A stretch of 64,000 nucleotides of DNA from Deinococcales bacterium. Lineage in GTDB: Bacteria > Deinococcota > Deinococci > Deinococcales > JAAFIG01. Made by a program: the position numbers and the translations under genes. Location of the stretch: positions 1-64,000 of the forward strand of contig JAYWGM010000092.1 in NCBI GenBank assembly GCA_043778225.1. Direction: 5' to 3'. Positions within the stretch are counted from its first letter, which is position 1. The number at the start of each line of letters is the position of its first letter. Shown one piece after another: positions 37,037 to 46,219 of the stretch. Below the pieces are notes generated by a model, which saw nothing but the letters and a program-made list of their open reading frames with translations, made no database searches and was not told the origin of the DNA.

Positions 37037-39628
37037 ATGAGTTTTGACACCCACCCTAAAATTGCGCTGCATGGTTTAACCTTTGATGATGTGCTGCTGC
37101 TGCCAGCCTACAGCGAAGTTACCCCAGATGTGGTCAGCACCCGCACCCGTTTAAGCCGCAATATCTGGCTAAATTTGCCACTGGTCTCGAGTGCCATGGA
37201 TACGGTTACGGAAACCAGTATGGCAATTGCCATGGCTCGTACTGGCGGCATTGGTATCCTGCATAAAAACATGAGCCTAGAAGCCCAAGCCGATATGGTG
37301 CGGAAAGTCAAACGCTCCGAATCTGGAATGATTGTAGACCCAATCACCTTGCCGCCAAGTGCGTTGCTCGAGGATGCCGAAAACCTAATGCGCGAGTACC
37401 GTATTTCCGGTGTGCCGATTGTGGATGATTCTGGGTTATTACTTGGGATTGTCACCAACCGAGATTTGCGTTTTGAAGACGATTTAACCCAGCGCGTAGA
37501 CAGCATCATGACTCGAGAAGATTTAATAACTGTTCCACAAGGCACAACCCTAGAAAATGCTCGAGACATTTTTAAGCTCCATAAAATCGAGAAACTCTTG
37601 GTCGTGGACTCGAGTTACCGCTTGACCGGTTTAATCACGATTAAAGATTTGCAAAAACGCATGGATTTCCCCAATGCCGCCAAAGATAACCTTGGGCGAT
37701 TGTTGGTTGGGGCGGCAGTTGGTATCTCTAAGGATTTTGAAGCTCGAGCCAAAGCCCTGGTCGAGGCTGGCGTGGATGTGCTGGTCTTGGATAGCGCTCA
37801 TGGTCACAGTAAAAACATTCTCGAGGGTGTGAAGTACCTTAAAAGCACCTTCCCAAAAATAGATGTGATTGCTGGCAATGTCGCAACGGCGGCTGGGGCA
37901 GAAGCACTGGTTGAAGCTGGTGTGGACGCGGTAAAGACCGGGATTGGACCCGGCTGTTTTGCGGCGGGTACTCGGGTTTTGATGGCAAATGGAACATATA
38001 AAAACATTGAGGATGTCCAAATTGGCGAACGGGTCATCAATATGCACGGCTTACCCGTAACTGTGGTCAATGCTTGGTGTACTGGCACTCGGGAAGTCAT
38101 GAGCTTACGTCACACCCAATGGTATGGTACGACTCGAGCCACACCAGACCATCGTTTTTGGGTTGGTGATATGAGTACCGTGGCAAGTAACGCGCTCAGC
38201 AGTCGAGGGTACGCTAAAATTCTCGAGCAACCCACACGTTTTGGCATAAGCAAATATAAATGGAAGCACCTTGAAGATTCTTCAAAAGATGCGATGCTCC
38301 TACCGCGTAGGATTTCATTTGAATTGCCTTCGGAGTTCAAAATTGATTTGCACCAGTACGCGGTTCGTCATGAGCAACTTGAAGCCAGATACATCACCAC
38401 CATGCACTCGAGTTATGACTTAGGGTATATTTTTGGTACTTTCCTAGGTGATGGTCATGCTTTTTTGAATTCAAATGGTAAAAGCGAAATTGGTCGGGCG
38501 GACTGGTATTTTGGCATTGAAGAACACCACATTGCCGATAAATTACTGGGTGCATTAGAACGTGTGTCTGGAGTTCGTGCCATCAAAAAACCAGACGGCA
38601 ACATCATCCGAATTTACTTTCATTCCTTACCTTGGGCAAGATTACTGGCACAATTTGGCAAACGCTACGATAAACACTTGCCAGAAGCCTTCTGGTGTAA
38701 TAACCTCGAGTATCAATCGGGGCTTTTTGATGGTTTAGTGGATTCAGATGGTTTTATTGGCAACGATGACCGAATTCAATTTAAGAACACTTCAAGTCAA
38801 CTGGTCGAATTATTTTCGGTGCTGTGCCAACAAGTCCAAGGTTCTTTTCCTAATCTCGAGACTGAAGAAGCCCATGTCGGCGGACTCAAAGGAGTAATCC
38901 TCGAGAATTGCCATGAATCCTACCGAGCCAGATTGAATAAATCCTTTGCTAAACGCCTGACCGAACAGTACCAAATCGTCAAGAATCTCGAGACTCACCC
39001 ACCTTTTGAAGCTGTCCCTGTCTACGATTTAGAAGTGGATTGCCCAACCCACAGTTTTATTGCCAACAATGCGATTGTCCATAATTCAATTTGCACCACC
39101 AGAGTCGTGACTGGCGTGGGTGTGCCGCAAATCAGCGCCATTATGGAATGCGTCTCGAGTGCTGAAGATGTGCCAATTATTGCCGATGGTGGCATCAAAC
39201 AAACTGGCGATATTCCTAAAGCGATTGCGGCAGGTGCAAGCAGCGTCATGATTGGCGGACTTTTTGCGGGTACAGACGAAGCCCCCGGCGAAACGATTCT
39301 GCGCGAAGGGCGGAAATACAAAACCTACCGAGGTATGGGCAGCGCTGGGGCAATGAGTGCTGGCAGTTCTGACAGGTACTTCCAATCTGGCTCGAGGAAA
39401 TTTGTCCCAGAAGGTATCGAAGGCATTGTGCCGTATAAGGGAACAGTCTCGGATGTGATTTATCAGATGGTGGGTGGCTTAAAAGCGGCGATGGGTTATA
39501 CGGGTAGCCCGACCCTCGAGCATCTGCGTTTACACGCCCAATTTACGCGCATTACGATGGCTGGGCTAATAGAATCGCATCCGCATGATGTGACCATCAC
39601 CCAAGAAGCCCCGAATTACTCGAGATGA
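37037..39628 (+). CDS. guaB: IMP dehydrogenase containing an intein
   Basis: [20 protein letters not shown] pair, GIGPG|intein|SICTTR, IIADGG, YRGMGS. Confidence 0.95.
37955..39085 (+). mobile_element. 377-aa intein with LAGLIDADG homing endonuclease
   Basis: CFAAGTRV start, TPDHRF block B, GTFLGDG and GLVDSDG, VYDLEV...IVHN followed by Ser. Confidence 0.93.
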
Positions 39629-40083
39629 TCATGCAGATTTCACCCATCACTCGAGTTGACACCGATTTAGAAGCATTGGCTAAGAAACAAGGCTTGCCTG
39701 ATCGGGCAGTCTTTTATCTGGCTTTGGCTCGAGTGGCGGTTCTTGTCTTGTCTTTCCCTCGAGTGGCAAGGCTTTTGGGGCGTTCTGCGGTGGAAACACC
39801 TGTTCTATCTTTGGAAAATAAGGAAGCTGCCCTTGTGGTGGCGTGGGCAGTCCAAAGCAGTGCAAAAAGTGTGGTCTGGCGCTGTGAGTGTCTCGAGCAA
39901 GCCTTGGCGACCAAATGGCTGTTAAAACAACGAAAAATCTCGAGTACCTTGTATTTTGGAACTTTTTTTAATGGCGTGACGCTCGAGGCTCATGCTTGGG
40001 TACGGGCTGGTAATCTGATTGTGGTTGGAGAACGAGGGTATCAGCAGTTTACCGTGATTGGAATTTATGGAGATCAACAATGA
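39625..40083 (+). CDS. Lasso peptide leader peptidase (B2)
   Basis: CLEQALA...LEAHAWV transglutaminase-like motif; context. Confidence 0.9.
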
Positions 40084-45269: not shown

Positions 45270-46219
45270 CAAAAGATTACTTATTATTTGGCTGGCGAGT
45301 ACGTGCCAATATCAGATTGCCTTGTTTTGAATTATTCAAGACGGGTGAACCAGACTGCTGCATCAATTTTTTACCTCCGCTCGAGTCACCTCAACTCTCC
45401 CTGCCAAATTTTGCGACCTTACTCGAAACCGATGGCGTACAGTCGGTTTGGCGGATAGACCAAGACACTTGGCGCATAGAAATGTTTAATCAAATCACCA
45501 ATCAGTGGTTACAACTCAATTTTCGTCAATCTGGCAAAAATATCGAAGTAATCTACAGCCAAAACACGATTGTCGAAAACATCCTACCAATGCTGCTCAC
45601 AAGGTTATTTACAACAATTTTATGGAATTCTGGACTCGTCTGCTTACACGGAGGTGTGGTCAATACCGAACAAGGTGGCGTTCTGCTGCTCGGGGATTCT
45701 GGCGATGGTAAATCCAGTACCTTAACCGCACTTTGGCAACAAGGTTGTACTGTGTTGAGCGATGATATTGCGGTTCTCGAGCCAAACGAACCTTGTCTGG
45801 TACATATTGGACCAAGGTATTTGCGCTTACACGACGACTCTGCCTCTGTACTGGGCATCAATCCAGAATCCCTACCAACCATATTTTTACCCGCCGAAAC
45901 GATTGGCAATAAGCGTTACATCAACCTCGAACATCAAGTGTGTCCTGTCTCGGTGGCAGTGCAACAAATTTTTATTCTTGCTGGACGAGAAAATATCGAA
46001 CAAACCAAATTGACTCGCCTTGCACCGTACATGGCTGTGGCAGAATTACTAAAATACCAATTTCGAGGTCAGCAACTCGAGCCACAAATTTACCCGCAAC
46101 TCCTAAAAGTAGCTGTTGCCTTAGCGCACCAATGCCATGTCTACTTGGTTCACACGCCAGCTAACCTTGAGAAATTACCTGAAATAGCCCAAACGATACT
46201 TGGGCAGCCACTTGTATAA
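45266..46219 (+). CDS. HPr-kinase-like lasso peptide kinase
   Basis: LHGGVV, GDSGDGKSS, VLSDD; ATGA overlap with the GT gene. Confidence 0.8.
   Translation: MTKDYLLFGWRVRANIRLPCFELFKTGEPDCCINFLPPLESPQLSLPNFATLLETDGVQSVWRIDQDTWRIEMFNQITNQWLQLNFRQSGKNIEVIYSQNTIVENILPMLLTRLFTTILWNSGLVCLHGGVVNTEQGGVLLLGDSGDGKSSTLTALWQQGCTVLSDDIAVLEPNEPCLVHIGPRYLRLHDDSASVLGINPESLPTIFLPAETIGNKRYINLEHQVCPVSVAVQQIFILAGRENIEQTKLTRLAPYMAVAELLKYQFRGQQLEPQIYPQLLKVAVALAHQCHVYLVHTPANLEKLPEIAQTILGQPLV

Follow-up and report, generated by a model that had tools for sequence, protein, structure and literature searches.

In a 64,000-nt stretch of DNA from a Deinococcales bacterium (GCA_043778225.1; contig JAYWGM010000092.1, positions 1–64,000, forward strand; hereafter the window), we describe a seven-gene cluster (39625–46219) that almost certainly belongs to the lasso type of RiPP (peptides made by the ribosome and modified after translation). 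All seven genes lie on the + strand and, by profile and open reading frame (ORF) checks, are intact and co-oriented, as an earlier note on this DNA had listed: leader peptidase (B2), a discrete RiPP recognition element (RRE; B1), cyclase (C), precursor (A), an RRE-fused TylF-family methyltransferase (MT), a glycosyltransferase (GT) and an HprK-like kinase (K). Our favoured interpretation, which we consider reasonably probable, is that the modifications of the precursor come from a dedicated and mobile module (‘precursor + RRE-MT + GT’) and from the kinase; that MT and GT act on the cluster’s own peptide is very probable. This pair is a real and conserved lasso tailoring module, apparently undescribed before, that is coupled to an anomaly of ring register. 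The earlier note identified the cluster type correctly but overlooked this most unusual feature: under canonical leader cleavage, the only possible ring acceptor in the core is Asp10.

The lasso core genes are readily recognized. B2 (39625–40083, +; 152 aa) carries Cys89 and His123 at the motif positions, matches PF13471 and scores 85 bits against NF033537 (cut-off 33). B1 (40080–40364, +; 94 aa) is PqqD-like (PF05402, E 1.6e-18), with 63 bits against NF033536, below the cut-off of 80. The 640-aa macrolactam synthetase (40365–42287, +) combines Asn_synthase and GATase domains, with an intact SxGLDS-type ATP-binding motif at aa 263; it scores 400.7 bits against the lasso cyclase model NF033535, below the cut-off of 525, and that model is still its best NCBIfam match. 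The 54-aa precursor (42343–42507, +) has no family match and is recognized by its leader motif and homologues. There follow MT (42616–43749, +; 377 aa), GT (43752–45269, +; 505 aa) and K (45266–46219, +; 317 aa), the last with an HprK-related match (E 4e-8) and residues H128/K149/D166/D167; its likely start is the ATG at 45266 rather than the TTG at 45191. The B2/B1 and GT/K junctions are 4-bp overlaps, B1 and C abut, and 2 bp separate MT from GT; the precursor is set apart by gaps of 55 bp on its 5′ side and 108 bp on its 3′ side.

The recurrence of this gene order supports our interpretation. Close matches to the cyclase occur in 5 of 41 related genomes. The GT is rare: within the phylum 4 of 364 genomes have it, and these all come from the host’s family; a full-length copy is carried by 4 of the 401 genomes in the class to which G364 (a metagenome-assembled Acidobacteriota genome) belongs, where 22 more have partial matches only; and 2 of 401 genomes have it in the order that includes G366 (Terriglobus). 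A metagenome scan with the GT added 36 loci, and a library-wide search listed at least 150 representatives, of which 37 near-full-length ones were aligned; named carriers include Longimicrobium, Pigmentiphaga humi, Bradyrhizobium and Acidobacteriota, and Terriglobus sp. 2YAB30_2 (L008) and P. humi are cultured carriers of a GT homologue. Plasmids searched with the GT gave nothing more than eight weak partial matches. In a FastTree phylogeny of 49 GT domains, which carried long-branch warnings, 16 GT loci form one clade with 100% Shimodaira–Hasegawa-like support. MT lies directly upstream of GT in 15 of these 16 loci (the remaining one, L096, has no upstream DNA). At every locus where the DNA reaches far enough, 13 in number, the precursor in turn lies directly upstream of MT; these loci span Deinococcales, two Acidobacteriota groups and metagenomes. 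Twelve of the 13 contain a cyclase (the contig of L005 is too short), and 14 of the 16 contain a kinase. The earlier note had named, as part of what would refute its reading, a failure of the tailoring genes to accompany lasso genes elsewhere; they do accompany them, since MT, precursor, cyclase and kinase recur across the GT clade.

Some details concerning B2 and the cyclase weigh against this picture. Seven of the 13 loci have B2 within the cluster, and at three it is cut off; three others (L099, L166 and L168) have no B2 within 19–20 kb. Genomes G525 and G366 carry B2 genes elsewhere, and the G569 cluster is spread over three contigs. Furthermore, the cyclase of L092 is frameshifted and that of L090 contains stops. 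In favour of the picture, a quick cyclase tree shows that the cyclases beside the module fall into two distinct, supported clades, with the kinase-only L091 nested among them; at L167 and L168 the module is transcribed divergently from the cyclase, and therefore travels as a unit. In the Terriglobus cluster, L168, a radical SAM gene (15728–16681, −) lies between cyclase and kinase.

Might MT, GT and K be cell-envelope glycan genes that stand beside a lasso cluster by chance? GT/TPR and TylF proteins are indeed common outside RiPP clusters, and just 5 of 80 TylF loci had another cluster gene; those five, however, include every match to the RRE-bearing N-terminus, and the precursor–MT–GT order is fixed across phyla. 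We regard chance adjacency as highly improbable, co-conservation having largely refuted it. For the two GT loci that are sister to the clade (L097, L098), and for 28 remoter ones (L100–L128), there is no lasso gene within the DNA examined; L100–L128 represent a larger family of related GT/TPR proteins, frequently encoded as tandem pairs.

The precursor leader contains Trp21-x-x-Pro24-x-Leu26-Glu27, followed by Thr34; that is, the class II motif ([Y/W]xxPxL plus Thr at −2), of which Trp and Pro are invariant in all 14 precursors from MT + GT clusters. In PbaA the equivalent residues are Trp−15, Pro−12, Leu−10 and Glu−9 (PMC13381572); this register maps onto Trp21, Pro24, Leu26 and Glu27, and places Thr34 at −2. 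Because both anchors (Trp−15 and Thr−2) agree, Leu36 becomes residue +1 and Asp45 residue +10. The predicted 19-aa core (42448–42504) has Asp45 (42475–42477) as its sole acid, Tyr48 as core residue 13 and Ser53 as its penultimate residue, core 18. The canonical cut thus leaves Asp10 as the only acceptor, outside the 7–9 range; a cut one residue later would make it Asp9. Natural lasso rings have 7–9 residues (PMC13352647, PMC12214591, PMC9266682), a limit that LassoPred hard-codes (PMC12214591); fusilassin enzymes accepted engineered rings of 7–10 residues (PMC13352647), and a bioRxiv text also gives a tolerance of ±1 residue. On its face, then, the ring is perhaps oversized by one residue relative to any natural lasso described in these sources, and maybe locked by a sugar; or else the cut is shifted by one. 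We give a Leu1–Asp10 ring about an even chance.

The shift of the acceptor is shared by most of the family. Of the 14 MT + GT precursors, ten have the acceptor at position 10, two have it at 12 and two at 9; one of the ten is a Glu (L178), one has Ala at position −2 (P2) by register, and L167 can also be read as position 12. As controls we took lasso precursors whose genomes or loci lack a full-length GT; in these the acceptor is at 8–9 in 15/15, and in 17/17 with two further controls. The nearest controls, three kinase-only precursors from the host’s family with the same type of leader (one of them in the same genome, G011), have acceptors at 9, 8 and 8. This control set leaves out L221, which lacks the Thr register and in which the acid would be at 7; control cyclases had no nearby precursor in 10 of 13 widened regions, nor at L169 and L170. 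Every core in the MT + GT family retains one acidic residue (Asp or Glu), as expected of an isopeptide acceptor; each also has a Tyr 3–5 residues past that acceptor, and a Ser or Thr within its last two residues (14/14, versus 9/15 controls). We had considered the tail Tyr as a hallmark of MT + GT clusters, and dropped it because the Tyr-Ser tail is also present in 5/15 controls and so is not specific to the module. Tandem precursors were observed at L001 (2306–2674, +): their leaders are near-identical and their cores different, both with Asp10. At L090 (G015:C32) and L091 (G011:C20) there are kinase-only sister lasso clusters, with cores that start with Phe; a second precursor at L091 has Ile at −2 and an early in-frame stop in its leader.

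Against an enlarged ring there are several considerations. Among the first 15 controls, just four combine a leader of the Trp type with the same register. The 14 precursors stem from about five lineages, so that the Fisher p of 1.8e-6 for the acceptor contrast overstates its significance. L093 and L099 are MT + GT precursors with Asp9, and hence the module can do without a large ring. The two precursors with Asp12 (L166, L005) do not fit easily with a threaded ring of any kind. Finally, cleavage one residue later would give an ordinary Ala1–Asp9 ring, and it would leave a small first residue (Ala, Ser or Gly) in eight rather than six of the nine precursors that are Asp/Glu10 from motif position 14. 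This last point introduces a substantial alternative, to which we give somewhat less than an even chance: the tailoring is the same and the ring is ordinary, with B2 cutting three residues past Thr (or with Ser35 as P2), or with a host aminopeptidase trimming one residue. In 6 of 8 Deinococcales precursors the residue after Thr/Ile is Ser; a non-Thr P2 is known (Ile in BsfA; Ile, Val and Ala are predicted; PMC10368454); and pseudomycoidin can form with host proteases alone (PMC6993621). On the other hand, the two independent anchors both point to Leu36, and a shifted cut would put Glu at P2 in L003, L165 and L178; moreover, L093 shares the Thr-Glu-Ala junction and yet has Asp9, and L166 and L005 would still be left at Asp11. 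Trimming draws some support from the M61 glycyl aminopeptidase gene that lies directly upstream of B1 at L165 (3775–5445, +), possibly mere synteny. We rejected M61 as a dedicated trimmer, as none was seen among the window ORFs scanned.

We now turn to the methyltransferase. MT has a PqqD domain (aa 38–91, E 2e-10) and a TylF domain (aa 105–376, E 1.2e-82; 277.6 bits against PF05711, cut-off 23), with the DxD and DD acidic motifs present, and its structure model (predicted local distance difference test, pLDDT, 81) shows an N-terminal RRE joined to a TylF fold. The RRE is present in 13/13 aligned copies. D312, D314, D339 and D340 are invariant in 12/12, and we take these residues to have metal and base roles. 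Predicted as a complex with the leader, the RRE scores 0.36 against 0.02 for the best control, with contact agreement of at least 86% between runs and partner pLDDT of at least 49. In our benchmark that mark is reached by 116 of 157 solved pairs and 2 of 215 mismatched ones, the range up to 0.60 holding 18 of the solved pairs and both mismatches; support is therefore weak, and it is weakened further in that RRE–leader complexes have already been solved, so that the score may mirror likeness to them. As judged from its domains, the RRE implies that MT would act before the leader is removed.

The best fold matches to MT are NovP, SpnH and MycF (39–51% identity; about 50% over 200 aa), all with the same acidic motifs; SpnH is a rhamnosyl 4′-O-methyltransferase. 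The earlier note’s appeal to TylF/MycF/NovP as precedents for sugar O-methylation is thereby borne out, since three such enzymes are the closest solved relatives. MT departs from them by its N-terminal RRE fusion, by a lid region (aa 120–175) unlike that of solved TylF enzymes, and by its context, a RiPP rather than a macrolide or aminocoumarin. Because the closest solved relatives methylate sugar hydroxyls, our best guess is an O-methyl-sugar plus a phosphate on the peptide; an O-methylated sugar on the product is likely. Methylation of the peptide itself (at a Tyr hydroxyl, a phosphate or a carboxylate) appears considerably less probable. It would fit an enzyme that its RRE directs to the peptide, the divergent lid, and a SAM loop that has Cys-Gln in most family members where SpnH and MycF have Trp-Arg. 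Known lasso methyltransferases do act on carboxylates (PMC9266682, PMC13352647) but belong to other families; the kinship with sugar O-methyltransferases also speaks against it, as does the fact that, in the lasso loci examined, MT never occurs without an adjoining GT.

As for the GT, its structure model (pLDDT 86) and fold search indicate a GT-B domain (aa 1–338) followed by a helical, TPR-like C-terminal domain. Its fold matches SenB, a mycobacterial mannosyltransferase and PimA (Z 21; root-mean-square deviation 3–4.5 Å over about 280–315 aa), in keeping with GT-B; as to the ‘GT4-like’ label of the earlier note, the family profile PF13524 is matched at only 20.3 bits, below its cut-off of 25. 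A drawback to any further assignment is that identity to solved enzymes is about 10–16% (11–14% for the best matches), whereby donor and acceptor are unreadable from the fold. Instead of a hexose, the sugar may be a 6-deoxyhexose. The host has rmlC-type and NDP-sugar dehydratase genes, yet these are common (11/14 and 14/14 control genomes, respectively).

The usual targets of GT4-like enzymes are hydroxyls and not phosphate oxygens. This argues against a pseudomycoidin-like scheme in which the sugar would be placed on the phosphate of a near-terminal Ser or Thr, with help from a PF14907 nucleotidyltransferase, and then methylated as a chain cap; we consider that scheme unlikely. It receives some encouragement from the co-occurrence of the kinase in 14/16 loci, from the near-terminal Ser/Thr of all 14 precursors, and from PF14907 genes that adjoin five related loci (L003, L096, L164, L165, L167; a GT2 gene adjoins two loci). 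PsmN-dependent hexosylation of phospho-Ser is a known reaction (PMC11912497, PMC9266682). Against this, none of the four Deinococcales clusters contains PF14907, their genomes carrying it elsewhere (in the window’s genome on another contig, C44, and not among the cluster genes), and at L167 and L168 the kinase gene moves separately from MT + GT.

How does the cluster compare with known systems? With the paeninodin type (PadeA/B1/B2/C/K; PbaA/PbaB1) it shares split B1 and B2, a WxxPxL leader with identical spacing to Thr−2, and an HprK-like kinase with His-Lys-Asp-Asp (PMC9266682); it differs in its predicted acceptor at 10, its extra RRE-MT and GT, its lack of an exporter and its host outside the Bacillota. 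PadeK phosphorylates the C-terminal Ser (PMC9266682). The window core ends in Ser-Phe, its Ser being penultimate, and just 4/14 precursors of the MT + GT family have a C-terminal Ser; the paeninodin analogy drawn in the earlier note accordingly holds for the kinase and fails for its site. The likeness to pseudomycoidin (psm; PMC6993621) lies in a kinase, predicted glycosylation, a sugar-lock proposal and possible B-independent maturation. However, the pseudomycoidin sugar needs PsmN, which is absent here, and no methyltransferase is reported for psm in the available text of that paper; the analogy made in the earlier note is thus weak. The cluster, in short, is one that functions like paeninodin/pseudomycoidin-type kinase lasso clusters yet lacks the traits that define them (C-terminal Ser; PsmN). 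The pseudomycoidin paper mentions, as uncharacterized, a cluster from Stanieria that has a kinase and a glycosyltransferase. Few lasso peptides are glycosylated, namely pseudomycoidins and davasins (PMC11912497). Davasins are likewise made by a cluster-encoded glycosyltransferase, IgtG, which is a GT2 fusion that acts on a Ser of the mature lasso; the window GT is not of this type but GT-B/TPR, paired with a putatively leader-binding MT. The bsf cluster of Bradymonas (PMC10368454) is also a Gram-negative kinase lasso cluster with a kinase site other than a C-terminal Ser and a non-canonical P2, but it has Ser3 phosphorylation, Ile−2, an Asp8 ring, a nucleotidyltransferase and an exporter, and, in the text available, neither GT nor MT. 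A Tyr-linked sugar is found in cacaoidin (PMC11912497), a RiPP of another class (class V lanthipeptide) with three GTs.

From these genes and motifs, we infer the following order of steps, along with sites, sugar, cut site and topology. With the leader still attached, the kinase would phosphorylate the last or second-last Ser/Thr (here core Ser18); GT would glycosylate a hydroxyl of the core tail, possibly with a 6-deoxyhexose drawn from the NDP-sugar pools of the host, with conserved Tyr13 as first candidate and a neighbouring Ser or the phosphate as alternatives; and MT, docked through its own RRE on the WxxPxL leader, would O-methylate a sugar hydroxyl using SAM and Mg2+. B1/B2 would then cleave two residues past Thr34, and the cyclase would link the new N-terminus to Asp45, the canonical cut giving a Leu1–Asp10 ring. 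A methylated sugar near the plug position may help to retain the tail in so wide a ring. This sugar-lock idea is an extension of the proposal by Zyubko et al. (PMC6993621) that a hexose on phospho-Ser serves as the lasso lock of pseudomycoidin, the unmodified form of which is unthreaded. That the sugar is a steric lock here is, in our estimation, doubtful; equally speculative is the bolder proposition of a natural lasso subfamily with rings of 10 (and up to 12) residues, in which threading would be held only by a leader-guided, O-methylated sugar plug.

It may be instead that the ring constraint is relaxed, the product being a branched-cyclic or linear glyco-phosphopeptide that is not threaded. 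The acceptor position varies from 9 to 12; L005 and L168 differ by an insertion right before the Asp; three clusters have no B2; and unthreaded pseudomycoidin (PMC6993621) and linear analogues (LPP, PMC13381572) offer precedents. The window, on the contrary, retains an intact cyclase, B1 and B2, and the acid kept in every core is what an isopeptide acceptor calls for; we therefore judge an unthreaded product improbable. It should be borne in mind that the alternatives raised here (a shifted cut, a sugar on the phosphate, an unthreaded product, methylation of the peptide and chance adjacency) are not mutually exclusive.

The cluster occupies an interval (39629–46226) between guaB and an acyl-CoA dehydrogenase gene that is a variable slot. 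Among the matches listed in other genomes there is no look-alike of this stretch. In G003 (C15) and G007 (C52), of the same genus, the slot holds unrelated genes. In G001, also of the host’s genus, a cluster (L001, on contig C564) stands before the same acyl-CoA dehydrogenase gene. In G006 some 20 kb separate the two flanks. As the earlier note had said, no exporter or isopeptidase is adjacent: among 40 other window ORFs scanned there is no ABC exporter, and the only S9 peptidase fragment lies 17 kb off, at the window edge. Directly 5′ of the precursor is a weak sigma70-like promoter candidate (42289–42318, +; 10/12 matches, the best in the region), and TATAAT likewise precedes the L001 precursor; the scan as a whole found 6 sites versus 10.1 in shuffles, i.e., no enrichment. 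On the 3′ side, a hairpin with a T-run (42566–42595, +; 7-bp stem, −8.0 kcal/mol), unlisted by the promoter/terminator scan, may be a terminator or attenuator, yielding more precursor than tailoring enzymes. One contig of sequencing run X1, a possible source of the assembly and not independent of it, covers the stretch with zero differences; runs X3 and X4, from another study, cover 29/30 and 30/30 bins with variant copies, and there is no RNA run among the matching sequencing runs listed.

We also observed that guaB (36938–39628, +) contains an intein with a LAGLIDADG-like domain (approximately aa 340–716); it is present in G007 and absent from the 486-aa guaB product of G003, from which we consider it mobile. 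At 60721–63233 (+) lies a low-GC pair that probably forms a restriction-modification module: a 338-aa ORF without assignment and a DNA methylase of the Eco57I-like kind. By eye, the hexamer CTCGAG is very frequent at 39000–47000, and in the host and its relatives.

The earlier note did not recognize this combination from characterized clusters, and our survey of open-licence PMC and bioRxiv main texts likewise found no description of a lasso peptide with a TylF enzyme (RODEO-type cluster tables might list such loci), an RRE-fused TylF/macrocin-type methyltransferase in RiPPs, Deinococcales or Acidobacteriota lasso clusters with a glycosyltransferase, a natural 10-residue lasso macrolactam ring, or a methylated sugar on a lasso peptide; the main text of RRE-Finder contains neither ‘TylF’ nor ‘methyltransferase’. 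For peptide glyco-engineering, a GT/MT pair guided by the leader would offer a portable tool. The shift of the acceptor, in turn, bears on whether nature exceeds the 7–9-residue limit and whether sugars serve as steric locks; if the cut is shifted instead, then the Thr−2 rule has an exception, and so either outcome is informative. Should a subfamily with sugar-plugged rings of 10–12 residues exist, it would furnish the first natural ring of more than nine residues, the first lasso peptide to bear an O-methylated sugar and the first sugar methyltransferase to be guided by an RRE, and mining tools that demand Asp or Glu at positions 7–9 would miss it.

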